A stretch of 64,000 nucleotides of DNA from a virus (Duplodnaviria > Caudoviricetes), in IMG/VR virus record IMGVR_UViG_3300028886_000036, positions 211,467-275,466 of that record. One strand, given 5' to 3'. A program made the position numbers and the translations under genes. The notes under the pieces are model-generated. The model made no database searches and was not told the origin of the DNA. It saw nothing but the letters and a program-made list of their open reading frames with translations. This document shows positions 12,575 to 56,542 of this stretch, piece by piece; position 1 is the first letter of the stretch, and every line of letters begins with the position of its first letter.

Positions 12575-12662
12575 ACCTCCACCTGCCCAAGATAAGACAG
12601 TGGGTTAACTGGGTTAACCTCTGTCGAACTACTCGAAAGTAGTTTCTCTGAAAGCAGATTCA
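12575..12662 (-). ncRNA. conserved structured 5' leader RNA, copy 1
   Basis: Near-identical to 31137-31223, with a compensatory base-pair change. Confidence 0.7.
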
Positions 12663-12696: not shown

Positions 12697-12725
12697 TTGA
12701 CAACTACTTCTTTTTGCTTTATAAT
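12697..12725 (+). promoter_or_regulatory. sigma-A/70-type promoter
   Basis: TTGACA-N17-TATAAT. Confidence 0.8.
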
Positions 12726-12760
12726 ACAGTCATATTAATAATCACAAGGAGGTTAATTAA

Positions 12761-14122
12761 TTGCCCTTAAGATGGTCTGAAGAAGAACATGACATTATTA
12801 GATTTATTAATTCTTATAACAACGAAGTAGTCAATAGCGGTTACAAAGAGATGAGATATACAGCGGATGATGTATATGAAATATGGAATAATTATCTATC
12901 AGATAACTACAGGGGGTTTGAATCTGTGAAACATAAAATGAGAGAGGTGGATTCATTTAGTTTGAATGACAGTATAATTAAATTTTTGAGTGGTAGTAAT
13001 TCACTTACTATTATGGATCTTATGGAGTATTATCATATATTTGATTTTATGGCTGAGAAATGCCTAGAATACTATGAACAAAAATTTATGAAAAGATTTT
13101 ATGATAGAAACACTGATGAAATCTTTACAAAAGAGCTTAAAGAGACTATTATAGAGAATCCTATTGTAGATCATAAGATTAAAATAGATACTGGTAATAC
13201 TCCAGTTTTGGTTAAACCAGAGCCTGATACTATTAAATCAGATGTTCCAGTTTCTAGTAAAAAAATTGAATCATTAGATATACCAGAAGCACCAGTTAAA
13301 AAGAAGGGTAAAAACTCATTAAAGAAGATTACTAAAAAGAGTAAGTATAAGACTTTAGCTGATGTAGAACAAGAATCAGTTGAAGATATTCCTGAAGAAC
13401 CATTTGCTGCTTTGAAAGAAATAGTTAATAGTTATAAGGTGCATATTAAAATTGGAATTATTGGAGATACTCATATTGGTAATATCTTTTGTGATGAGAA
13501 TACTCTTAACAGTTTTTATAAGAGATGTAATGATCTCGGTATCAAATACATCATTCACGCTGGTGATCTTGTAGATGGTCATAATATGTATAATGGCCAG
13601 GTTAAAGAGCAGAATCTTCACGGATTTGAAGAGCAAGTAAAGTATGTAATCTCTAATTATCCCAAATATGATGGACTTGTAACCTATGTAATTTCTGGTA
13701 ATCACGATATGTGTTATTTTAATAATACGACTTTACATCCTCTAGTTACTATTAGTAGATCTAGACCAGATATCATTTATGCTAGTGACTATTATGCTAA
13801 TATTGATATTGATGGTATTAAGATTACAATGATTCATACTGATGGTAACAGTGGATCTGAACCAATGACTAAACTAAAGAAGCTTATCAATAATAGAACT
13901 GAACCGTGTGATGTTATGGTGATGGGCCATTTACATCAGTCTATGGAATTGAGAGATTATTGTGGAGTAGCATATGCATGTGCTCCTGGGTCTTTCTTAA
14001 AGCCTAATTCATATACTATTAGAAGAGGATTCAACTGTACTCTTGGTGGATATATTCTTGATATTGAAAAGAATCTTTCCACTAATAAACTTATAGTTAC
14101 ATCTACTTGGATCAGTGAATAA
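12761..14122 (+). CDS. calcineurin-like metallophosphoesterase with N-terminal extension
   Basis: GDTH, AGDLVDG, GNHD, MIH and GHLH motifs. Confidence 0.9.
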   Translation: MPLRWSEEEHDIIRFINSYNNEVVNSGYKEMRYTADDVYEIWNNYLSDNYRGFESVKHKMREVDSFSLNDSIIKFLSGSNSLTIMDLMEYYHIFDFMAEKCLEYYEQKFMKRFYDRNTDEIFTKELKETIIENPIVDHKIKIDTGNTPVLVKPEPDTIKSDVPVSSKKIESLDIPEAPVKKKGKNSLKKITKKSKYKTLADVEQESVEDIPEEPFAALKEIVNSYKVHIKIGIIGDTHIGNIFCDENTLNSFYKRCNDLGIKYIIHAGDLVDGHNMYNGQVKEQNLHGFEEQVKYVISNYPKYDGLVTYVISGNHDMCYFNNTTLHPLVTISRSRPDIIYASDYYANIDIDGIKITMIHTDGNSGSEPMTKLKKLINNRTEPCDVMVMGHLHQSMELRDYCGVAYACAPGSFLKPNSYTIRRGFNCTLGGYILDIEKNLSTNKLIVTSTWISE

Positions 14123-28026: not shown

Positions 28027-29697
28027 TTGGGAGTGGTAATTATGGATAATATTTTGGGAGAACTTAGACAGATTCTGGATAATAATAGAGAGTTTATGGG
28101 TAGTGAATTTTTGTCAGTGTATTCTAGATTGGTATTTGGTAAAAAGACTGATCCTACAGTATTGAAGTCAGCATCATATCTCTGTAAAGAATTTAAATAT
28201 TTTATTGAGAGAGTAAAAGATAAACAGAATACTATTGGAGTTACTCTTATTACTTTGGATTCTTTACAGCAGAAGATGTTACAGTATGTTAGTAAGAGTT
28301 TTAATAATAAAAGTAAAGTAATTGATGGAGATGTAGCTCTAGAGAAATATAAGAATTTTATTAATAACGATGTATCAATCAGTTATGAAGATAAGCAGAA
28401 AGCATTAAGTATTACCACTCAAGAAGATCTTCAGTTGGATGTAGTGAATGAAATCCAAACTAGTTTTTCTAATAAGAAATGTATGTTCAATTCATTAGGT
28501 CAGTATGAGATACTTAAGACTTTTATTAATAGTGGTTATAATGAATGTGAAAACTGGGGAGAATTTGTAGATAAGTTTCATAAGTTGTTAGGTACAGCAC
28601 TTTTGGATGTACAAGCTTATACTTATGATGCGGCTAATTCATTAGATCTATCTAGTATGACTATTGAAGATGTAGTTAATAATAATAATCAAGTCACCAA
28701 GATTAGTACTGGGTATAATATGTTTGATAAAGTACTTCAGGGTGGTTTTCAGAATCAAAGAGTGTATATGTTTGGTGGTATTTCTGGTGGTGGTAAATCT
28801 CTAGTATTGGTTAATTTTGCATTTAGAGCGAAGTTGTTTTTGGATAAGAAATATCCAAAAGAAGAAAGATCTAAACATACTGTATTGTATATTTCATTAG
28901 AGAATAGCACTAAAGAAACTGGTGATAGATTTATTTGTTGTGCATTGGGTCAATCTATTGCTCAAATTGAAAATGGGTTTAGTAGTTTGAAAGATCAGTA
29001 TAACTACAGCATTAAAGAAGTATTTAATCCAGATAATGCTAGAATCAATATCACATATAGACCAGCTAAAAGTATCGATATCTATGATATCCAAACTATT
29101 ATTACCGATATTGAAAGAAGTACAAAAAGTAAAGTAGATATTTTGTTTGTGGATTATGCAGATAAAATGTCTGCAGTGAATGCGTCTAAATCAGATCAAG
29201 AATGGAGAGATCTTGGTTATATTGTTGATGAATTGAAATCATTATCTATTTCATTGGATATCCCGGTAGTTACAGTTACACAGCTTAATAGAGAAACTTA
29301 TAAGGGGAAAGGCAAAGGTAATGAGTTCAGTATTAATGGTGGTAATATCTCTGGTTCAATTAGAAAAAGAGAGAATGTTGACTTCTTTACTATCTTCAAC
29401 TTCAAAGCCAAAGAAGAAGAAGAAATCAGTATGAATGATAATCCTGATGAAGTCTTTGATGATAGAAAAGATGTTATGAAACCAATTGAACCAGTATATT
29501 GTATAGTTGATAAAAACAGAATGGGCCCAGATAATCTGAAGTTCCAAGTATATATTGATTATCCAACTTACAGAATGCTTAATTACCCAAGTGAGAATAT
29601 TAGTACTAGTTTCTATCATAATGGCAGTATTGAAAAAGTTATGATTGATGAAGATGAAAGTAAGCTTGATGAAAAATTAAGAGATACAATGCTTTAA
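28027..29697 (+). CDS. replicative SF4 helicase (DnaB/gp41-like)
   Basis: GISGGGKS, YISLEN, FVDYAD, VTVTQLNR and DKNRMG. Confidence 0.9.
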   Translation: MGVVIMDNILGELRQILDNNREFMGSEFLSVYSRLVFGKKTDPTVLKSASYLCKEFKYFIERVKDKQNTIGVTLITLDSLQQKMLQYVSKSFNNKSKVIDGDVALEKYKNFINNDVSISYEDKQKALSITTQEDLQLDVVNEIQTSFSNKKCMFNSLGQYEILKTFINSGYNECENWGEFVDKFHKLLGTALLDVQAYTYDAANSLDLSSMTIEDVVNNNNQVTKISTGYNMFDKVLQGGFQNQRVYMFGGISGGGKSLVLVNFAFRAKLFLDKKYPKEERSKHTVLYISLENSTKETGDRFICCALGQSIAQIENGFSSLKDQYNYSIKEVFNPDNARINITYRPAKSIDIYDIQTIITDIERSTKSKVDILFVDYADKMSAVNASKSDQEWRDLGYIVDELKSLSISLDIPVVTVTQLNRETYKGKGKGNEFSINGGNISGSIRKRENVDFFTIFNFKAKEEEEISMNDNPDEVFDDRKDVMKPIEPVYCIVDKNRMGPDNLKFQVYIDYPTYRMLNYPSENISTSFYHNGSIEKVMIDEDESKLDEKLRDTML

Positions 29698-29745
29698 GAG
29701 AATAAAATAAAAAGGCCGCGATGTAGCTGCGGCCTTTTTCCATTT

Positions 29746-30402
29746 TTACTCCTTAATAATCAACTTCCCGATTGCTGATTCTCCGCGAAACATAGTACGG
29801 AATGTCCGAGACAGAATTCCATAATTTCCGCACTCATTCGTGTCTGGAAACACTGACCAGCAGAATCCTGGAACATCCAATTTTAAGTCTTTAGAGTGAT
29901 CATCAAGACGGAATACCTTTGAGACCTGTGTATAGGTATCCTTTTCTGGAACCCATGTCTCCACGGAAGTTCTCGGGCACCACAGATTGGAGGCATCGTA
30001 TTCCTCCTCCGTTTCGTAATGCCCTTTGATCGTTCCTGTCTTTACTTTCCGACCATACGTGACGTATACTCCGCTATTTGGGCCGATCTTGATTTCGACC
30101 CCCAAAAATAGTCCGTTCCTTTCAATGCAATATGGTTCGTATAACGGGAGCGGTTTAACGTCGGGCCATACCGCGCCATCTCGTAATGTGACTGGAATGT
30201 CCGGGATTTCCACCCGGAATTCCTCCGGGGCCATGAATCGCCCCAGTGTCTCCCAGTATGGCGCAGATACTGCATCACCCAGTATTTCTTCAAACGGATA
30301 AAACTTAAAGTATTTCACTATCATTGTGGCTTTCATTTTGTCATCCTCCGAGGGCAGTTGCCCAAAAACGCAGAGCCAGTTGTTAAGAGGATCTAGGATC
30401 AC
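29746..30402 (-). CDS. hypothetical protein (higher-GC cassette gene)
   Basis: Promoter motif at 30453; terminator at about 29709-29739. Confidence 0.75.
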   Translation of the reverse strand: MILDPLNNWLCVFGQLPSEDDKMKATMIVKYFKFYPFEEILGDAVSAPYWETLGRFMAPEEFRVEIPDIPVTLRDGAVWPDVKPLPLYEPYCIERNGLFLGVEIKIGPNSGVYVTYGRKVKTGTIKGHYETEEEYDASNLWCPRTSVETWVPEKDTYTQVSKVFRLDDHSKDLKLDVPGFCWSVFPDTNECGNYGILSRTFRTMFRGESAIGKLIIKE

Positions 30403-30522
30403 TCTCCAAACCTAGCTGATGGACATTGATTATATGTCCTGTCACTGCCCTAATATATATACAAATGAAAATAGAAAAATAAATAAAAAGAAGACCTAAA
30501 TAGTATAGGTCTTCTTTTAATC

Positions 30523-30825
30523 TTATAACCAAAGAGTAAATTCTAAGTCATCTAACCTATAGATAATTTTACCTCTAGTTTGTGCTCCCTTTATCTTTTT
30601 TAGTTCAGTTTCTTCTTTTACTACGACATTATACTTTCCAGATATTTCTTCTTTAATCAGATCAGCATTAATTATAGACATATGGAAAGTACGATAATAC
30701 CATACTTTTATATACTTGTTTTCATCTTCAAGACAAAATAATGTAAACCAATCTTTATATTTACCACATATAACTGGAATTTCGTGCATATGTCGATTAC
30801 CCTGAGTTAACCCTAAACAACTCAT
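30523..30825 (-). CDS. hypothetical protein (cassette gene)
   Basis: GGAGGTG SD before the ATG at 30825; motif at 30862. Confidence 0.7.
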   Translation of the reverse strand: MSCLGLTQGNRHMHEIPVICGKYKDWFTLFCLEDENKYIKVWYYRTFHMSIINADLIKEEISGKYNVVVKEETELKKIKGAQTRGKIIYRLDDLEFTLWL

Positions 30826-30936
30826 AACAAACACCTCCAAAGAGATTAAGATACTTTCATTATATACTTATGAATAAAGCATAGACTAAATAAAAAGAAG
30901 ACCCTAAACTTCAGGGCCTTCTTTTTAATATTATAG

Positions 30937-31131
30937 TTACTTCTCGTTCTTAACGCGTTCGATACGTAAGCCTTTCAAGCAATCCCACAATTTCGGGGAA
31001 TACTCTGATTTATAGCTACTTACGAAAATAGCGTGCCGGATGCAATATATGATTGCTTCCGGCACCCGAAACAATCCGCAGCCAACAACGTGTGCTGCGG
31101 ACAACCCGCAATCGATACTAACGTTAAACAT
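30937..31131 (-). CDS. small hypothetical protein (cassette gene)
   Basis: GGAGGT SD before the ATG at 31131 (MFNVSID...). Confidence 0.65.
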   Translation of the reverse strand: MFNVSIDCGLSAAHVVGCGLFRVPEAIIYCIRHAIFVSSYKSEYSPKLWDCLKGLRIERVKNEK

Positions 31132-31136
31132 CGTAT

Positions 31137-31223
31137 ACCTCCACCTGCCCGAGATAAGACAGTGGGTTAACCAGGTTAACCTCTGTCGAACTGCGTTTTG
31201 CAGTTTCTCTGAAAGCAGATTCA
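31137..31223 (-). ncRNA. conserved structured 5' leader RNA, copy 2
   Basis: Homologous to 12575-12662. Confidence 0.7.
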
Positions 31224-31276
31224 CTGTCCTAATATATATACAAACAGAAATTGGTTATAGAACCAATAATAAAAAC

Positions 31277-31343
31277 TTGATCAGATCAGATTCGAACTGA
31301 TGACCTTCACTAATGTGATACTCTACCTCTGAGCTACTGATCA
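31277..31343 (-). ncRNA. tRNA-like RNA (67 nt) with a truncated anticodon arm
   Basis: TGATCAG TA GCTC AGAGGTA GAGT A TCAC ATTA GTGA AGGTC ATCAG TTCGAAT CTGAT CTGATCA A. Confidence 0.8.
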
Positions 31344-31449
31344 CCCTCTCGGGAAAATATATAAAACTTAAATACGCTCTTTTAATATACATATAAACAA
31401 GAATTAAAAAGAAAACTCCTAGGTGTGTGCTAGGAGTTATAAATTGTTA

Positions 31450-31941
31450 TTATTTAATGAAGTCTTGTAAAGTAAAAGCTTTGGTATCAAGCTTTTCTTT
31501 GACAATCTTTTCTTCTTTTTCCTTTTCAAGACGAATTTGCTTTTTCATGAATCTGGCAATATCTTCTTCAGACTCAATATCATTAATAGACATATCTTTA
31601 GGATTATATTTCTCAATGGTTACATCCATATTAGGAAGTGCTATGAATGACCACCATTCAGATCCATCATACTCGGATCTTTTGAGATATGACTGGTCAT
31701 TAAATACTACTTGGCATCCAAGCCATACTACTTCGCATCCATAACCGTTGTAATAGTTAAAGTCTGAAGATATCCTTTCAAAATCTTCCCAAGAAACAGC
31801 TGTGGAAGGATCTTTATGAAAGAATTCTTTTTCCTTATTTTTAACTACCACATGATGCACGTCCTTAGGAGAATGCCCACTCTTTTCAATTGCTTGAATA
31901 GTTTCTTCAAGCAAATTGATGTTAGGCTTGTCATATGACAC
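31450..31941 (-). CDS. hypothetical phage protein (cassette gene)
   Basis: GGAGGTG SD; YNGYG...RSEYDGSEWW motif; promoter motif at 32017. Confidence 0.75.
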   Translation of the reverse strand: MSYDKPNINLLEETIQAIEKSGHSPKDVHHVVVKNKEKEFFHKDPSTAVSWEDFERISSDFNYYNGYGCEVVWLGCQVVFNDQSYLKRSEYDGSEWWSFIALPNMDVTIEKYNPKDMSINDIESEEDIARFMKKQIRLEKEKEEKIVKEKLDTKAFTLQDFIK

Positions 31942-32040
31942 ACTAACACCTCCAACAAAAGATATTTATTTTGAACTACTCTATTCACACACAAAAGAGT
32001 AGTAGATACTTAGTTAATATATTTATGAAAGACAGAGCAA

Positions 32041-32298
32041 AAAGAAACCTATGCCTAATGTTACAGCATAGTAAAGAAAACATATAGTTTTCTTTTCCGT
32101 GAAGGTTTCTATCTCCTATCCTTATAAGGACGGGCGCTTAGTCTCTGATACACCAAACGGGGTGAGTGTATCTTCACTTAAGCACCTACCTTATAGAGCA
32201 GGTTAGGAGATCCAACACGATACGCAGCTCAGCTAGCTTGCGCCTGAATCGGCAAGCTCAGAACTGAGTTACGCAGCCCCAGATTACTCATAGGACAC
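32041..32298 (-). ncRNA. candidate ~255-nt structured non-coding RNA
   Basis: Own promoter motif (32306); no ORF in the track; three long stem domains whose G-U pairs work only on the minus strand. Confidence 0.65.
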
Positions 32299-32390
32299 TC
32301 GTATAATATATATACAACCTGAATTAAGTTTTATACATTAGATAACAAAAAGAAACCCCACAGTCATCACGACGTTGGGTTTCTTTTATT

Positions 32391-32936
32391 TTAGCAAACT
32401 TTTACCTCCTTCTTTCTGGCGATCTTGCATGCCAGAGAACACCCCCAAAACAACATAAGGGCCACAGTAAGAAGTGTAGGTCTAATACTATTAACAGTCG
32501 CCCCAGTATATAACCACGTTGGGATTACTGACGCCAGAATATTCCAACTGCTGTGATTAATGTACCAGAAAACTTTCATACGCTTATTGCTATAATGGTA
32601 ATAGCACAACCCAGATGCCGCGTGAAGCAGCATCATTGGCAGTCTAAATACCATAAACAACCCGACTCCAAACCACGCGATCTGGTAGGAGTAGAGAAAA
32701 GCCTCGAAGAAAGCATAAACTACCGCTTCTTTCTTGCTGCTGCAGTGCCTCATCTTAAAGGATTCTTCTAACCATGGAACCCAAAGGCACATCACTACGG
32801 ATGTTACAATTCCAAACGCACTCATTGCTACGTAATAATGATTATTGATGCTATATACGCAGCCCCCTACAGCAACCCCCGCTACGATCAACGGCTTCCA
32901 CATGGTGCAAATGAAATCTTTGAGATACTGTTTCAT
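32391..32936 (-). CDS. multi-pass membrane protein (cassette gene)
   Basis: AGGAGG SD before the ATG at 32936; several hydrophobic segments. Confidence 0.75.
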   Translation of the reverse strand: MKQYLKDFICTMWKPLIVAGVAVGGCVYSINNHYYVAMSAFGIVTSVVMCLWVPWLEESFKMRHCSSKKEAVVYAFFEAFLYSYQIAWFGVGLFMVFRLPMMLLHAASGLCYYHYSNKRMKVFWYINHSSWNILASVIPTWLYTGATVNSIRPTLLTVALMLFWGCSLACKIARKKEVKVC

Positions 32937-33163
32937 AGTATCCCTCCTACTCCACCTGAGCAAATGCCAGGCCGACCCACTGGTCTGCACCTTGGCTAGA
33001 CACCGACCGATTCGGTGTGCTCTAATAGTAGAGTCACTTGCGTAATATATATACAACTAAAATTAAGTTCTAGCAAAAAGAAAAGTTCATTTCGTATACA
33101 GATAATAATTATTTTTGAACTATTCTTTTTTATTTCAGTCAAACATCCCTTAATTTAAATTAA

Positions 33164-33397
33164 CTACTTTTCATCTGGATATAATTCACCAGCTACAAAT
33201 ACTACAGTTTGATATCCAGTACTATTGATAACTATAAATGATCTGCCATCAAAAGTATAAGGATATCCACTATTAGAACTATCACTAACAGTATTGTTAT
33301 GTCTGTTATCATCTTTGTTCACCTTATAAAAGATGGTATCTCTGTAACTACTCATCTTCTTCATCCTCTTCAGGAGAACAAATCGTGATAGCTCCAA
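33164..33397 (-). CDS. small hypothetical protein
   Basis: Coupled downstream of 33348-33653; the true start is probably internal (MSSYRD). Confidence 0.55.
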   Translation of the reverse strand: MELSRFVLLKRMKKMSSYRDTIFYKVNKDDNRHNNTVSDSSNSGYPYTFDGRSFIVINSTGYQTVVFVAGELYPDEK

Positions 33398-33653
33398 TTG
33401 AATCTAATGGGACTATGTACTTATCATTTTCCATTATAAAGTCTTCATCAGACTCATCTGGAAAATAGATATTGATCTCAAGATGAAGTTCACCAATTAA
33501 ATTAGTGATAACTTCTCTCTTGGTATACATACCCATTTTCTTTAATTCAGAGTATTCATCTTTAGAAAGCCTTATAATGCTTTCTTTCTGATGATTGCTC
33601 TCAATCAAAAACCTATTGTCCGCAAAGTTGTAGTAGTTGTAATTATAGTCCAT
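33348..33653 (-). CDS. hypothetical acidic protein (cassette gene)
   Basis: GAGGAGGT SD; long structured leader. Confidence 0.7.
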   Translation of the reverse strand: MDYNYNYYNFADNRFLIESNHQKESIIRLSKDEYSELKKMGMYTKREVITNLIGELHLEINIYFPDESDEDFIMENDKYIVPLDSIGAITICSPEEDEEDE

Positions 33654-33874
33654 TACAATCTACCTCCTCATATCGTACTCTCCTTTCAAAAGAGTAATAA
33701 AGTGTATAGTCTAATCTAAACGAAAAGACTTTTCTGAATGACTCAAACAAGCACTATTACTTGCTTGAATAAATCAGTGGATTAGACTGACTTACACTTA
33801 TGAAATATATATGTATGTGAGAAGTTAATAAAAAATATAGTGGGCGCATAGACTCCCACTATATTTCTGTAAAA

Positions 33875-34348
33875 CTACTCGTCTACGATGTCACACAACT
33901 TATCATACATCATATCAAGTACTTCTAAATCCTTTTGAGCATTAACCATTTTTAAGATATCATTTCTCACTTCCTCTATTTTCTTATTCAATTCAGATTC
34001 TGTAAACCTATATCCGAGCAGATCTAATACTAAACATTTTTTCTCATCATTAAGCGCATACTGCCATAATACATACTTCCACTGATTAAACTTCACACAA
34101 TTCCAATGAGGCTCGTCATCAGCTGCCTCGATATAACTAAGCCTTGGAATATCGAACATATCCTTAAGTATTTCATTAGTTGATACACGAACACTTACAT
34201 CCTCTTTAGAGAAGTCCTTAATAAGTTCGGATGGTTTGTTATATACTCGAACATCTACACCCATCTTATCAAGAGCTTTCTTAACCTTCTCCCACGGTGT
34301 TTCGTAGAACATCTTCTTTTCCCACTCGCGCTTTACATAGTCATACAT
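33875..34348 (-). CDS. hypothetical protein (cassette gene)
   Basis: AAGGAGG SD; motif at 34411. Confidence 0.75.
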   Translation of the reverse strand: MYDYVKREWEKKMFYETPWEKVKKALDKMGVDVRVYNKPSELIKDFSKEDVSVRVSTNEILKDMFDIPRLSYIEAADDEPHWNCVKFNQWKYVLWQYALNDEKKCLVLDLLGYRFTESELNKKIEEVRNDILKMVNAQKDLEVLDMMYDKLCDIVDE

Positions 34349-34494
34349 TTTAAACCCTCCTTAGGGTAAAATAGATATTGTCTTCCTATAAAAGGTAAGA
34401 CAGTATAATTATATACATATAAAGAAGAGAACTTTTATTTAGAGGATTCTCTTTTATAAAGATTTAGTTCTATTGATTGCTTAATAAAAATAAA

Positions 34495-34520
34495 GAGCAG
34501 TTTTACGTCATGCTCAGGAC
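34495..34520 (-). repeat. 26-nt 3'-end element (pseudoknot-like), copy 1
   Basis: GTCCTGAGCATGACGTAAAACTGCTC; 25/26 identical to 36367-36392. Confidence 0.8.
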
Positions 34521-34527
34521 AGGCTGG

Positions 34528-34824
34528 TTACTTGATGATCTTCAGAACTTCGTCCGCGATTTCTTCTGGACAGTCCTTAACTCCCACGGCTTCTCTGAAT
34601 TCGCTCAAGATTTGGCGCAGGTTCTCTGGCAAATGCCCGAGTTTCTCAAGGTCGTTGTAAATCTTCACTACAGAGAAATTGAAAACTTTCTCACCAAGCG
34701 CCTTTAAGAGCTCTTCATAAAGAGGGTAGTTTAAAGACTTAACCCACATATTGTGGGTTGTCTCTGAAGCAGTTCCCTTCAGCTCTTTGTGGATTACCAA
34801 GTACCACGTATACTGAATTGTCAT
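34528..34824 (-). CDS. hypothetical protein (cassette gene)
   Basis: GGAGGTG SD; motif at 34879. Confidence 0.7.
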   Translation of the reverse strand: MTIQYTWYLVIHKELKGTASETTHNMWVKSLNYPLYEELLKALGEKVFNFSVVKIYNDLEKLGHLPENLRQILSEFREAVGVKDCPEEIADEVLKIIK

Positions 34825-34936
34825 TTTTATCCACCTCCACGGTTAAGGGATGACATACCCTTGTAAGATATTCTATTAATATATATACACCCAGAATTAA
34901 AAAAAAAGAGAACCCTCATATAGAGGATTCTCTTCT

Positions 34937-35827
34937 TTATTTTTTAATAAACTTTATAACTTCTTTAGCAACCCATTCAGCAGTCTTTTCCATCATATAT
35001 TTTCTTGGGTCAGCATTCTTATATGAATCTAAATATACAGTACTGAACATATCTTTCTCAATCTTTTTAATAGGCAATACTTCATGATGTTCTCTATCTA
35101 AAGCATGACCTAATTCATGTGCAATAATAAAGATATACCAATCTTGCACAGAAGTCTGGTTAGCTTTCCAATAATTCCAAACTGCTTTATAGTCTGGATT
35201 AATATAGATCTTACCGTTATGACAGTATGACCCACCGGACCATCCTATTGGTTTACCTTTAACTATACTACCATCATTATAATGTGGAAATGGTGAGATA
35301 ACTAATTTGATATAAGATAAGTCTACGCCAAACATCTTATTGATTACTTTAACTACTATACTATAGCAAGTTTTAATTGTGTTTCTAACTGAAGGATTAA
35401 GTAATTGATCTACTATATAGTTACTCAATGAATCACAGTATGATTCTTCTTGTAAAGTACTAGTAGTACTATTTTGTATCTTAAGATCTATAGTGTAACT
35501 AGTTTGTATTATAGATACTTTAGGTCTAGTATAGTTATGATAAACTATATGAGCTAATTCATGAGCTATAAGATTATATAAAAATAATTTATAGTTTCTA
35601 ATTGATTGAAGTTTCTTAAACACTACTATTGGTCTAATACAAATTATTTCTGGATTGGTTTCCCAGCAAGCACATCCATCACTATCTTCATAACCACTAA
35701 TTGGTCTAGCCTTTTCATCTAATACCTGATTACTAAATATAAGTTGTACTTGAGATAGATCTATATTAAACTTAAGCTTATAATAGTGTTTAACTATATT
35801 AAAGATTTTAATAATCTTTTCTTTCAT
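34937..35827 (-). CDS. tandem two-domain zincin metallopeptidase-like protein
   Basis: IAHELAH and IAHELGH in two homologous halves. Confidence 0.75.
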   Translation of the reverse strand: MKEKIIKIFNIVKHYYKLKFNIDLSQVQLIFSNQVLDEKARPISGYEDSDGCACWETNPEIICIRPIVVFKKLQSIRNYKLFLYNLIAHELAHIVYHNYTRPKVSIIQTSYTIDLKIQNSTTSTLQEESYCDSLSNYIVDQLLNPSVRNTIKTCYSIVVKVINKMFGVDLSYIKLVISPFPHYNDGSIVKGKPIGWSGGSYCHNGKIYINPDYKAVWNYWKANQTSVQDWYIFIIAHELGHALDREHHEVLPIKKIEKDMFSTVYLDSYKNADPRKYMMEKTAEWVAKEVIKFIKK

Positions 35828-36306
35828 TGTGGTATACCATTAAAAGCTATTGATTTAGCTCTATATCTTACATCATCTGTAACTTCTTTACCAAACCAAT
35901 TGGGTGGGATAAATTGTTTAGCAGATCTTATATCTGGAAATTCTACTTCTACAGTGATAAGTCCTTTAGCATTACCACTATATATTGAGATACCAGCAAA
36001 TCCTATATCAACAACTGTTTTTGATAATGATGCTTTTGATACTTTTTTAAGTGAGTTATATTCTTCAGGAGTAAGCCTCTTTTCTATTTCGGTTCTAACC
36101 ATTCCATTACCGGATTTAATAGCCATTTTATAGATTACTCCATATCCCTGTATTTGGATCTTACTACATCTTAACTCACCAGAACCATCTATCAAAACAT
36201 AATTATGAACTAACTTATGTACAGATTCAATCTTAAATTGCTTAAGATTAGGTAATCTATCAATTACCCAGACCCTTTCTATTTCTTGGCCTGATTGAAA
36301 TGCCAT
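35824..36306 (-). CDS. CYTH-domain (triphosphate tunnel) protein
   Basis: EIER N-terminal motif, RTEIE, VEVEF and PNWFGKEVT. Confidence 0.85.
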   Translation of the reverse strand: MAFQSGQEIERVWVIDRLPNLKQFKIESVHKLVHNYVLIDGSGELRCSKIQIQGYGVIYKMAIKSGNGMVRTEIEKRLTPEEYNSLKKVSKASLSKTVVDIGFAGISIYSGNAKGLITVEVEFPDIRSAKQFIPPNWFGKEVTDDVRYRAKSIAFNGIPQ

Positions 36307-36366
36307 TTATAACAACTCCTTTATAGAGATTTAGTTCTACTATTTGTTCAATAAAAAATAAAAGAA

Positions 36367-36392
36367 GAGCAGTTTAACGTCATGCTCAGGAC
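36367..36392 (-). repeat. 26-nt 3'-end element (pseudoknot-like), copy 2
   Basis: GTCCTGAGCATGACGTTAAACTGCTC. Confidence 0.8.
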
Positions 36393-36398
36393 AATTTC

Positions 36399-36611
36399 TT
36401 AATAGGTTTCTTCCTCCACAAGCCCCTTGAAGTACACTACTTGCTGTTCACCGTATGCATTCCAGCTAAACGAATGTTTCTTCTTAGCTTCGTCAAGAGT
36501 ATTGAATGGACCGGCGATAAACACATCAGCGCTTGGTGCGGACATACCATTCGCTGAGGATGTACCAACAACGCAATACCATTTACTGCATTCTTTTTTG
36601 CTTCCGAACAT
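36399..36611 (-). CDS. small hypothetical protein (cassette gene)
   Basis: AGGAGG SD before the ATG at 36611 (MFGSKK...). Confidence 0.7.
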   Translation of the reverse strand: MFGSKKECSKWYCVVGTSSANGMSAPSADVFIAGPFNTLDEAKKKHSFSWNAYGEQQVVYFKGLVEEETY

Positions 36612-36681
36612 TTTATTTCCTCCTAAAGATAAGATTGCCCCACATAGTAAGGTTACTTTCTTAATATATTTATAAAAAAAT

Positions 36682-37230
36682 TTGAACAAATATAGAGTAT
36701 ATATTTTACAAAGAAAAGAGGTGAATCCTTTGAAATATAGATTAGTTCCTTTATTAGAAAACAGTGCTTTCAGCAATGTAGATTGGATTAAGAGGGCATT
36801 TAGAAAAGTTAAAAGATTTTATAAAGAAGAGTTAGACACTAATTTAGACTATATGAAGTTAAAGTTTACAACTAAATGTTACAATGAAGATGGCACTATT
36901 AAGACTGATGCTGATACTAATGTACCAAAGAAAGGTGCTGGAGATTGGACTGAAAAACATATAATCTATATTAGACCTAATCAAGTTACTTTAGAAACTC
37001 AGCATATGGATGAGTTTAATAAAGAAAGATTTGTAGCACAAGTTATTGCACATGAATTAGCACATGAATGTTTGCATAACAAGTTATTTACTTTAAGAGA
37101 AAAAGGTATACCTATGGCTAGAACTAGATATGTTAACACATTCAAGAAAGGTTCTGATGAATACAAAGAAGAATTATATGCTGATTCAGTAGGCAACTAT
37201 GTTGCACAAAAGCTTTATAGTGAAGAATAA
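36682..37230 (+). CDS. zincin metallopeptidase-like protein
   Basis: IAHELAHE plus EELYAD; the likely start is the TTG after GAGGTG (MKYRLV). Confidence 0.75.
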   Translation: MNKYRVYILQRKEVNPLKYRLVPLLENSAFSNVDWIKRAFRKVKRFYKEELDTNLDYMKLKFTTKCYNEDGTIKTDADTNVPKKGAGDWTEKHIIYIRPNQVTLETQHMDEFNKERFVAQVIAHELAHECLHNKLFTLREKGIPMARTRYVNTFKKGSDEYKEELYADSVGNYVAQKLYSEE

Positions 37231-37318
37231 TTTTGAACAAATTAGAGAGTACTATGGATTAACTCAAAATCCATAACTAGGCTCTCTAATTTTTTTATAT
37301 ACAGCATCAGACCATTGT

Positions 37319-37590
37319 GTCAATAACCTTATACATTATTGTATGAAGCCATGCTTCTTATTGACTACCCTAAGTCTGGTTTTACCAGGAAACTACGTTA
37401 TTGAAGAAAAGATAGGCACCTGCGAACGTTTGTCCTAATTTACAGCTCTGCGGCTAATGATTAAACGGTTCTGAAAGGTAGGGACAGTGTTATTAGCATA
37501 TAAAACCTTCAAATAACATTGGGTAAGGGCACCTAACTCTACTTTTGTAGAGAGTCACTTCTTTTGTTAGTGACTAAATTTTATGTAGTA
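37319..37590 (+). ncRNA. omega RNA (HEARO-type) of IscB
   Basis: Starts GTCAATAA...TTATTGAC stem, then ACTACGTTA, GGCACC, GCTCTGCG and AACATTGG elements typical of HEARO RNAs; lies directly upstream of iscB; 3' end approximate. Confidence 0.8.
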
Positions 37591-37603
37591 AGGAGGTAAC
37601 CTT

Positions 37604-38866
37604 ATGGTTTATGTATTAAGCAAAACAGGGCAACCACTTATGCCAACTAGTAACCACAGAAAAGTAAGGTTACTTCTTGAGTCTGGTAAGGCAAAGGTTG
37701 TCCGTAGAACGCCATTTACAATTCAATTACAATATACTTCCCACACCTATAAACAGAATGTTAGTTTAGGTGTAGATACTGGAAGTAAAGTAATTGGATT
37801 ATCTGCAACTACTAATAAGCAAGAGCTGTTTGCAGAAGAAGTAACTATTAGAAACGATATAGTTAAATTATTGTCTGTTAGGAGTCAGCATAGACATGGT
37901 AGAAGAAGTAGAACAACTAGATATAGGAAACGAAGAACGCTTAATAGAAGTAATTCCAAGCAAAAAGGATGGCTTTCTCCAGCCATTAAAGCTAAAATAT
38001 TTTATCATATTAAAGTTATAGATAGAGTGCATCAAATACTTCCTATTAATAATATTATAATTGAAACTTCTGCATTTGATATGCAAAAAATAGTGAATCC
38101 AGATATAATTGGTGACGAATATACAAAAGGCCCTCAATTGGGTTTTTTAAATGTAAGAGAATATGTGTTATCTAGGGATAACCATGAATGCCAAATTTGC
38201 CATGGAAAAAGTAAAGATCCGGTGTTAAATGTGCATCATATTGAATCTAGGAGAGTTGGTGGTAATTCTCCTACTAACTTAATTACTTTATGTAAAACTT
38301 GCCATCATAAGTTACATTCTGGAGAGATAACTACAAATTTTAAAAGAAAAAGACCATTAAGAGATGCAGCATTTATGTCAATATTAAAATCTAGATTATA
38401 TAATCTTCTTAAAAACAAATATAAAAATGTTAAAGAAACTTTTGGATATATAACAAAAGCAGTACGTATAAGTAATAATTTGCCAAAAGATCATTGCGTT
38501 GATGCTAGATGTATATCAAATAATCCTTTAGCAAAAGAATCTAATGTATTATATATAGCTATTGTAATAAGAAGACATAATCGAAGAATACATCAAGATG
38601 CTATAAGAAAGGGTGGTACAAGAAAGATTAGACAACTTCCTAAATATGTTTTAGGATATAGAATGTTTGATAAAGTAAGATGTGATAAAGGTGAAGGTTG
38701 TATATTTGCAAGAAGATCTTCCGGATATTTTGATATAAGACATTTAAATAACGAAAGAATGTATGCTGGTGGATCATATAAAAAAATTAAGCTAATAGAA
38801 AGAAGTAATACTCTTCCTATAGAAGGAATTAAACGGAATATTGATAGGGGTGATGATGATGCCTAA
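37604..38866 (+). CDS. iscB: IscB RNA-guided endonuclease (IS200/IS605 OMEGA system)
   Basis: PLMP N-terminus, RuvC-I GVDTG, Arg-rich bridge helix, RuvC-II IIETS, HNH (CQIC..HHI..N..LCKTCH), RuvC-III HCVDA. Confidence 0.93.
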   Translation: MVYVLSKTGQPLMPTSNHRKVRLLLESGKAKVVRRTPFTIQLQYTSHTYKQNVSLGVDTGSKVIGLSATTNKQELFAEEVTIRNDIVKLLSVRSQHRHGRRSRTTRYRKRRTLNRSNSKQKGWLSPAIKAKIFYHIKVIDRVHQILPINNIIIETSAFDMQKIVNPDIIGDEYTKGPQLGFLNVREYVLSRDNHECQICHGKSKDPVLNVHHIESRRVGGNSPTNLITLCKTCHHKLHSGEITTNFKRKRPLRDAAFMSILKSRLYNLLKNKYKNVKETFGYITKAVRISNNLPKDHCVDARCISNNPLAKESNVLYIAIVIRRHNRRIHQDAIRKGGTRKIRQLPKYVLGYRMFDKVRCDKGEGCIFARRSSGYFDIRHLNNERMYAGGSYKKIKLIERSNTLPIEGIKRNIDRGDDDA

Positions 38867-55690: not shown

Positions 55691-56542
55691 ATGCCAGGAA
55701 AAAGAGTTTCTAGTCAAGTACCTTATCCTAGTAAAGCTATAGGAGATTTTTTAGGAGAGGTTGGCAATCTATTACAAACTCAAGTTTATAATAAGTTTAA
55801 GCACGTAATAATTGGATCTTTCAATAAAGCAGTCTTATATTTAGAGCAGCTTAATAATGATAAGAATGTTACTAGTGAACATGGTATGTATAAAGATCTT
55901 CCTATGATGATCTATACACCAACTTTAGAAGAGCCAGTACCACAAGTGGATTATTTATGGAATTATCCAGGTACTCATCCATATATGTCTTCATGGAATA
56001 GACCACCCATTATGTTTGATGATGGAACTATGTTAACTATGACTACTAGAAGAATGCAAGGTAATATAGATTTAAGAATCTTTGTTGATTCACAACCTGA
56101 AGAACATGACATCCAAATGTCTTTCTTAAATTTCTTTAGGGGTCTAAACACAGTATATCCACTTAATAATGTCACATTAGAATTTTGTTTAGCAGACAAA
56201 ATAAAAATGTTAACTGATAGAAATGATGAAATAGTACTCAATCTTTTAGATAGTAATATCAGTCATAAACTTGTAAAAGCCACCAATCAATATGAGTATA
56301 TGATCCCAATAAGTTCTACTCCAACACTAAGATTAGCATCTTTAACTGATGCATCTACTTTTTATGGTGGAACAGATTTTGCTGAATTTGCTTTATCTGG
56401 GTCCTTGCAGTATGAATTAGAAATACCAGCAGTTATTACACTACAAACTGAAGTAGACATTCGATCTATTCAATTTAACATTACAACAGATATTAATACA
56501 GATACTGGAGAAGTACTTGAAAGTTTCATAAAAGAAGTCTAG
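55691..56542 (+). CDS. probable virion (neck/tail completion) protein
   Basis: 283-aa ORF, GGAGGTG SD; function inferred from context only. Confidence 0.45.
   Translation: MPGKRVSSQVPYPSKAIGDFLGEVGNLLQTQVYNKFKHVIIGSFNKAVLYLEQLNNDKNVTSEHGMYKDLPMMIYTPTLEEPVPQVDYLWNYPGTHPYMSSWNRPPIMFDDGTMLTMTTRRMQGNIDLRIFVDSQPEEHDIQMSFLNFFRGLNTVYPLNNVTLEFCLADKIKMLTDRNDEIVLNLLDSNISHKLVKATNQYEYMIPISSTPTLRLASLTDASTFYGGTDFAEFALSGSLQYELEIPAVITLQTEVDIRSIQFNITTDINTDTGEVLESFIKEV

Follow-up and report, generated by a model that had tools for sequence, protein, structure and literature searches.

A tRNA-shaped RNA with a closed mini hairpin at the anticodon-arm site in a rumen phage, probably a tRNA mimic of recurrent design

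Non-decoding RNAs that are processed like tRNAs include the vtRNA parts of the TMERs of murine gammaherpesvirus 68 and mascRNA from MALAT1, the latter with a reduced anticodon arm. Both are eukaryotic and transcribed in another mode, and their processing has been experimentally established. Among bacterial and phage RNAs, YrlA-type Y RNAs (RF02553) are tRNA mimics that keep features of the D- and T-arms while their anticodon region is replaced; in these RNAs, Ro60 binds a stem formed by the two ends, and it is the acceptor-like end that is closed (Chen et al. 2014, PMC4201824). The consensus of the SpF41 sRNA of Streptococcus (RF02435) combines an acceptor-like stem with a short central hairpin (4-nt loop), a GGUUCGAAUCC T arm and a terminator; the papers found on it give no function. 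A survey of IMG/VR (PMC10690425) mentions 'tRNA-like' candidate RNAs in general terms only, and our literature search found no paper on phage RNAs that keep the cloverleaf but have their anticodon arm sealed into a mini hairpin.

Here, we analyze a tRNA-shaped element in a rumen phage represented by a 275,466-bp IMG/VR virus record that CheckV rates as complete. The stretch under study, referred to as the window, is the final 64 kb of this record, with a GC content of ~32%; coordinates are those of the window unless stated otherwise. The element and its parts are as follows.

31277..31343, minus strand: tRNA-shaped RNA of 67 nt, including the discriminator A at 31277 (RF00005, 53.8 bits)
31337..31343, minus strand: acceptor 5' strand UGAUCAG, 7/7 Watson-Crick pairs with CUGAUCA at 31284..31278
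31320..31334, minus strand: D arm GCUC-AGAGGUA-GAGU, 4 pairs including G10-U25
31307..31318, minus strand: mini hairpin UCAC-AUUA-GUGA at the site of the anticodon arm, 4 bp plus a 4-nt loop
31302..31306, minus strand: variable loop AGGUC (G46, C48), from the sequence and cmscan
31285..31301, minus strand: T arm AUCAG-UUCGAAU-CUGAU, 5/5 pairs, with G53, U54, U55, C56, A58 and C61
31265..31276, minus strand: U-rich trailer GUUUUUAUUAUU immediately 3' of the discriminator A, read from the sequence, no CCA

The match to RF00005 covers model positions 1-71 (E 9e-9 for the window, gathering threshold 29), and its score falls inside the range of the real tRNAs of the phage (51.8-67 bits). Compared to canonical elongator tRNAs (RF00005), the element has the same 7-bp acceptor stem, U8, G18 and G19, 5-nt variable loop, UUCGAAU and A73; however, it is devoid of an anticodon stem-loop, of U33 and of an encoded CCA, and its first pair is U1-A72 (the 3:70 pair is A-U). 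All remaining pairs of the cloverleaf are intact (20/20), U8-A9 follows the acceptor strand, A26 follows the D arm, and within the D arm A14, G15, G18, G19 and A21 are all present, with a U at position 20. The core of the L-shape is complete (U8-A14, G15-C48, G18, G19, A21, G53-C61, U54-A58, U55 and C56), as are the tertiary layers C13-G22-G46 and A9-A23-U12. A first-pass annotation of this DNA had described a tRNA-like RNA with perfect acceptor and T arms, U8-A9, a GG in the D arm and an AGGTC variable loop, all of which we find on the minus strand from 31343 to 31277.

The same annotation had reduced the anticodon arm to TCAC-ATTA-GTGA (4 bp plus 4 nt), a reading with which both the sequence and cmscan agree. 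According to cmscan, the shortening is confined to the center of the arm, with 4 nt versus 9 in the model; the whole arm spans 12 nt versus the canonical 17 (5-bp stem plus 7-nt loop) and contains neither a 5-bp stem with a 7-nt loop nor a U33 in loop context nor an anticodon. Since this arm consists only of UCAC-AUUA-GUGA, the element cannot decode and is not a decoding tRNA. Despite passing the Rfam threshold, it should not be filed as a tRNA, because the defining feature of the anticodon arm fails. ARAGORN does not call it, although it finds the 8 real tRNAs of the phage genome. All 8 of these are directly followed by CCA, while the element has GUUUUU at this position; the first pass had likewise noted the absence of an encoded CCA and a T-run 3' of the element. 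The cloverleaf is equal in energy to the minimum free energy (MFE) structure, at -16.8 kcal/mol, and the folding z-score of -1.7 is unremarkable, as tRNAs usually are in this respect.

A second altered tRNA scaffold was observed in the same genome at G000:C1:209689-209806 (plus strand; G000 denotes the source genome), ~1.7 kb ahead of the start of the window and directly preceding a tRNA-Gln. It has no CCA, and its MFE layout comprises a 7-bp acceptor stem, a D arm and a T-arm-like hairpin, while the anticodon-arm site is occupied by a long, irregular hairpin.

By analogy, the element would functionally most resemble the non-decoding tRNA-like RNAs that use the tRNA-processing pathway, mascRNA and the TMER vtRNAs. 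Common to all of them is a tRNA fold open to RNase P, RNase Z and the CCA-adding enzyme in the absence of decoding, although processing is predicted for the element and it has no homology to, or common ancestry with, these RNAs. With YrlA RNAs, it shares the bacterial or phage origin, the D- and T-arm features and the replaced anticodon region, but the topology is the opposite one, as the ends of the element form a normal acceptor stem and its anticodon end is closed. In addition to this topology, a YrlA-type Y RNA was rejected for want of a match to RF02553, with tRNA being the only Rfam match at E <= 1, and of a Ro60 gene. We looked for the latter and for other partner genes in the source genome, in its closest relative (IMGVR_UViG_3300028886_000034, G002) and in a further phage with a short-armed element (IMGVR_UViG_3300045988_153522, G001). 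Ro60/TROVE (PF05731; positive controls detected), PTH2 (PF01981), a CCA-adding enzyme and RtcB were absent from all 3, as were T4 Rnl1 (RNA ligase 1) and DUF6353 in searches run without a positive control.

Other known RNAs were tried as well. The absence of PTH2 led us to reject a PTH2-linked off-size tRNA mimic. A tmRNA was rejected, as ARAGORN found none and the 3:70 pair is A-U and not G3:U70. The element gives no match to the SpF41 model RF02435 (threshold 52 bits) at E <= 1, and the short-armed element of G001 reaches 27.9 bits, under this threshold. Finally, a remnant of an attP or integration site was dismissed, given that both halves of the cloverleaf are present and that this is a 275-kb virus with its own replisome.

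The element is located in an island of 9 kb of small minus-strand cassettes, which extends from a DnaB-like helicase gene (28027-29697) to the next conserved gene (38841). Its immediate surroundings contain the following features.

31414..31438, minus strand: intrinsic terminator of the upstream 163-aa gene, 9-bp stem with 4 GC pairs, followed by UUCUUUUU
31383..31402, minus strand: promoter-like island motif TCTTGTTTATATGTATATTA, with TATATT at 31389..31384, a 2-mismatch variant of TTnnnGTTGTATATATATTA
31356..31385, minus strand: alternative sigma-70-like promoter TTAAAA-18-TATATT, 9/12 matches in a consensus scan, such matches being no commoner here than in shuffled sequence
31344..31353, minus strand: mini hairpin CCC-GAGA-GGG directly 5' of the acceptor stem, from the sequence and the MFE fold of the predicted transcript
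31250..31267, minus strand: weak AT-rich hairpin AUUGGUU-CUAU-AACCAAU, then UUCUGUUUG (dG -4.9 kcal/mol)
31231..31249, minus strand: promoter motif of the next cassette, the downstream boundary of the tRNA-like cassette

The terminator at 31414..31438 forms the upstream boundary of the cassette, and the TCTTGTTTATATGTATATTA motif sits right behind it. The first-pass annotation had assigned the element its own promoter motif at 31385, and candidates are indeed found there, namely TCTTGTTTATATGTATATTA at 31402..31383 and the sigma-70-like match at 31385..31356. The TTnnnGTTGTATATATATTA form of the motif is found ahead of minus-strand cassettes at 30470, 31249, 32323, 33062 and 34896. Based on the analogy with the neighboring cassette, transcription would start near 31377 and yield a leader of ~33 nt. 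Downstream, the hairpin at 31250..31267 was not picked up by the terminator scan and is a possible leaky terminator. The next cassette comprises a Y-shaped leader (31223..31137) and a small ORF; since the other copy of this leader cassette (12575-12662) has no tRNA-like element upstream, the leader cassette and the element are separate units.

Across the minus strand of the island (29700-38800), at least 6 cassettes open with TTnnnGTTGTATATATATTA, and most of them end in a terminator. At the edge of the island, a HEARO RNA (RF02033, 116 bits) was identified at 37319-37537 on the plus strand; HEARO RNAs accompany mobile elements of the IscB/HNH type. No informative Pfam, PHROG or PADLOC match was obtained for the neighboring proteins. 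The 163-aa neighbor belongs to phrog_3972 and has hundreds of distant homologs that are at most 43% identical, none of which is syntenic. Elsewhere in the window, a promoter that matches TTGACA-17-TATAAT perfectly, together with an AAGGAGG ribosome-binding site (12697-12770, plus strand), precedes a TTG-start gene on the plus strand and is divergent from the first leader cassette; it suggests that the host uses standard promoters of the sigma-70 type and strong Shine-Dalgarno sequences.

The closest relative, G002, has a genome of 284 kb with terminal repeats and a helicase that is 72% identical; 3 relative fragments (G003-G005) encode a helicase at 72% identity as well. In G002, synteny extends as far as the helicase and resumes at window position 38841, while the 9-kb island in between differs, its counterpart in G002 (82.4-91.8 kb) being wholly different in content; the fragments, too, are syntenic on either flank of an island of different content. 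No short tRNA-like element was found in G002, where every match to RF00005 is at least 71 nt long, or in G003-G005. The first-pass annotation had proposed looking for the RNA in related phages, and this search yielded no ortholog in G002 and, with it, no direct conservation. Searches with exact and degenerate patterns of the element revealed no other copy in IMG/VR, JGI metagenomes and GTDB representative genomes, and patterns of the neighboring leader returned nothing relevant from IMG/VR, JGI metagenomes or GTDB genomes. Because G002 lacks the element and the pattern scans gave no copy, there is no covariation evidence for this gene, and conservation support from its closest relatives is missing too. 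This lack of conservation in direct relatives is the main weakness of the case.

The pattern matches that did arise were dismissed as unrelated tRNA-Gly(GCC) genes, as a patchwork of tRNA fragments (L162) or as chance occurrences within coding sequence. Moreover, no bacterial tRNA with the acceptor stem of the element was found in the GTDB representative genomes scanned, and a BLAST search against cultured phages gave generic tRNA similarity only (tRNA-Val of crAss001, 73%, E 0.5). Two unusual tRNAs were observed in the compared genomes: a 94-nt tRNA with a CUA anticodon inside the tRNA cluster of G002 (55907-56000), labeled tRNA-Pyl by ARAGORN, and a UUA-anticodon 'tRNA-Stop' (ARAGORN) in G001 (212159-212237). 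Both are possible suppressor tRNAs.

RNAs of the same design were identified in other phages. The 272-kb genome of G001, which has just 10 weak ORF matches to the source phage, contains a 64-nt element with the arm ACA-UUAA-UGU and a different acceptor stem that scores 49.6 bits against RF00005.

L109:1501-1564, minus strand (G001:C1:80740-80803): short-armed element of G001, no CCA

The 10 ARAGORN tRNAs of G001 are all followed by CCA, and the short-armed element is not. Four additional assemblies from other samples carry it unchanged (5 in total), and it lies 28 nt ahead of the start codon of a DUF29 (PF01724) gene.

We surveyed IMG/VR for a common D-arm plus T-loop signature with shortened spacing, a narrow and restricted pattern that yielded 73 loci. 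Perfect acceptor and T stems (7/7 and 5/5 pairs), which the pattern did not demand, were found in 34 of these loci (29 unique), with 12-18 nt where a tRNA has 21-22; acceptor stems were broken in about half of the short-gap matches. Within the 29 unique short-armed loci, 15 can form a hairpin of at least 4 bp from position 27 that leaves a normal variable loop, far more than expected by chance, since 2000 shuffles gave 2.7 on average and never more than 11. As a working class, we defined RNAs in which the acceptor and T stems are perfect, the D and T loops are canonical, and positions 27-43 form a hairpin of 3-5 bp with a loop of 3-5 nt. The layout of 4 bp plus 4 nt seen in the element recurs exactly in L190 (CUAG-GAAA-CUAG, then AGGUC), in L191 (CUAC-GCAA-GUAG) and in L198 and L223 (CUGA-GACG-UCGG), and several short-armed elements of this very geometry have GNRA tetraloops. 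L190, L191 and the GenBank fecal phage MT835485.1 give RF00005 matches with the same shortened center. In MT835485.1, a human fecal phage scaffold whose GenBank record is unannotated, the match is 68 nt long (L454:739-806, plus strand; 42.2 bits), and the anticodon site reads CCAGA-UUAU-UCUGG, a 5-bp stem with a 4-nt loop.

The short-armed loci were compared with 99 normal-length phage tRNAs carrying the same signature, among the matches listed. CCA is encoded in 3/29 short-armed loci versus 54/99 normal ones among the matches listed (Fisher p = 1.4e-5); a G-C first pair occurs in 28% versus 64%, and an A-U first pair in 34% versus 4%, of these 2 sets. Hence 26 of the 29 have no CCA, and in 72% the first pair is not G-C. 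Because these differences lie outside the arm, the short-armed RNAs appear to be a distinct population rather than random casualties among tRNA genes. The element fits this class by U1-A72, the missing CCA, its perfect acceptor and T stems, its canonical D and T loops, and its hairpin of 4 bp plus 4 nt. ARAGORN skipped most of the survey set and labeled a few as tRNA-??? or tRNA. A strict cloverleaf scanner, applied to 0.37 Mb of loci chosen without a tRNA pattern, found 5 normal and 0 short cloverleaves, too few for a frequency.

The genomic contexts of the class are heterogeneous, with most members standing alone, and given this heterogeneity the members may share no single function. One subgroup (L190:10710-10778; L191:321-388; L184:4105-4173, minus strand; L237:2877-2945) is located ~40 nt upstream of genes for DUF6353 (PF19880, phrog_2152) membrane proteins, and 2 of its 4 RNAs have GNRA loops. 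A general link to DUF6353 was rejected, since it is limited to these four metagenomic contigs and the cultured actinophages Tanis and Zeina lack the RNA, there being no room for one upstream of their DUF6353 genes. Another subgroup (L204, L212, L216, L238 and L231), labeled tRNA-??? by ARAGORN, has perfect acceptor and T stems and a 7-nt loop, CUUUUAU or CUUGUGU, that is closed by only ~2 bp; it may represent an oddity different from the sealed-arm class.

On balance, we consider it likely, if not strongly so, that the element is a transcribed, non-decoding mimic of the tRNA body and one case of a recurrent phage RNA with a sealed arm of 3-5 bp. Judging from its sequence, it is probably a functional tRNA mimic of a recurrent, undescribed design. 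The preference of the first-pass annotation for a non-decoding mimic over random decay is supported by intact stems and tertiary positions, the missing CCA, the element's own promoter, the identical assembly and the recurrence. In the mechanism that we propose, the element would be transcribed early from a start ~33 nt upstream; host RNase P would remove the 5' leader, and either the U-run or RNase Z would define the 3' end, to which the host might or might not later add CCA. The resulting RNA would fold as a tRNA with a shortened long arm and would be inert in translation, because it cannot pair with codons and is missing the identity elements of anticodon-independent synthetases. Through the acceptor/T-arm helix, the elbow and the D arm, it might then serve in trans as a decoy or competitor that engages a host protein with affinity for tRNA bodies or ends. 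The features kept would be those recognized by RNase P, RNase Z, the CCA-adding enzyme, T- and D-loop modification enzymes and acceptor-end binders, whereas those dropped would be the ones that the ribosome and most synthetases need.

The place of the element in a hypervariable island of early cassettes suggests a defense toxin or a tRNA-processing or tRNA-sensing factor as the target, and the early-type promoter and the fast turnover of the island fit an accessory for host takeover or counter-defense. Among the functions listed in the first pass, a decoy for anticodon nucleases is the least natural one, because the loop that those enzymes cut is missing, and it could work only as an uncleavable competitor; enzymes that act on the acceptor end or dock at the elbow are more natural targets. 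A broader proposal, which we put forward tentatively and consider rather doubtful, is that many phage lineages carry a common, undescribed class of translation-inert, anticodon-sealed and CCA-less tRNA bodies that would serve as decoys or uncleavable competitors for host defense enzymes recognizing tRNA bodies or acceptor ends, with the element as its rumen jumbo-phage case in an early mobile cassette.

Several other explanations have to be weighed against a tRNA-body mimic. The one that survives best, while still unlikely, is a recently inactivated tRNA pseudogene that has lost part of its anticodon arm and is carried along in a fast-turnover accessory island. The hypervariability of the island, the absence of the element from G002 as the nearest relative and of a second copy from the IMG/VR, JGI metagenome and GTDB pattern scans would fit such a relic, and phage genomes do hold tRNA fragments, as the broken acceptor stems in about half of the short-gap matches illustrate. 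However, none of the 20 remaining pairs or of the tertiary positions of this element is damaged, a promoter motif of its own is kept, and the leftover arm is a perfect 4-bp hairpin whose geometry matches that found in unrelated phages. Furthermore, GUU in place of CCA needs changes beyond one deletion. We enumerated all 5-nt insertions into the present arm and obtained a canonical arm (5 pairs, Y32, U33 and R37) only if position 34 is A, so that a one-step deletion needs an A34 ancestor. A34 is rare, and tRNA-Arg(ACG) carries A20, unlike the D loop of the element with its U20. Given this ancestor requirement, the U20 and a Logan contig of SRR9008756 (25.9 kb, from a different pipeline, seen in 2 samples) that is 100% identical across 6,492 bp spanning the element, an assembly slip or a simple one-step 5-nt deletion is unlikely.

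Only slightly less probable than a pseudogene is a cis-acting element for processing or termination, in which RNase P and RNase Z would be recruited to cut cassette transcripts, or the acceptor stem and U-run would terminate them, and the released RNA would have no role. Parallels for this exist in tRNA punctuation and in the t-elements of plant mitochondria. Because no strong terminator follows the element, only the U-run and the -4.9 kcal/mol hairpin, transcripts from its promoter may read into the next cassette with its leader and small ORF, and the positions of the short-armed element of G001, 28 nt before the DUF29 start codon, and of those in L184, L190, L191 and L237, ~40 nt before a DUF6353 gene, would suit a cis role as well. 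Yet the full-consensus promoter of the next gene stands between that gene and the element, and the second copy of the leader cassette (12575-12662) does without a tRNA-like element upstream. Since the upstream gene ends in a strong terminator, there is also no obvious mRNA to punctuate, and a complete D arm and variable loop are unnecessary for a processing handle.

Clearly less probable is that the element serves as an amino-acid carrier for a non-ribosomal reaction, receiving CCA, being charged by a synthetase that ignores the anticodon and acting as donor to a transferase, even though the intact acceptor/T-arm helix and A73 would allow for it. Identity elements outside the anticodon include G3:U70 for Ala, the long variable arm for Ser and G-1:C73 for His, and E. 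coli tRNA-Leu has A15-U48. Judged by these rules, charging of the element by most synthetases is unlikely, because the anticodon, G3:U70, the long variable arm and G-1:C73 are all missing and its 15-48 pair is G-C. In addition, CCA is not encoded, and no linked transferase gene was found among the neighbors scanned. Least probable by far is an assembly artifact, a normal tRNA gene minus 5 bases: it would account for the deficit of exactly 5 nt, but it is contradicted by the identical Logan assembly, by the need for an ANN anticodon if 5 restored nt are to yield a canonical arm, by the missing CCA, which has no connection to such an error, and by the analogous G001 element, whose sequence does not vary across five assemblies made from different samples.

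Much of the conflict between bacteria and phages is fought over tRNAs, which hosts cleave or block and for which phages supply spare or resistant versions. An RNA that presents all the cues for tRNA-binding enzymes and nothing that the ribosome needs would be a different counter-move, as such a mimic could soak up or mislead these enzymes while leaving translation undisturbed. Our survey suggests that this is a recurrent design in phage genomes that has been overlooked by annotation, with ARAGORN skipping the element and Rfam labeling it simply as a tRNA. If the class is confirmed, analyses of phage codon usage should take care not to score such genes as decoding tRNAs, and the class would provide a small, defined and easily synthesized RNA to test against tRNA-targeting defense systems.
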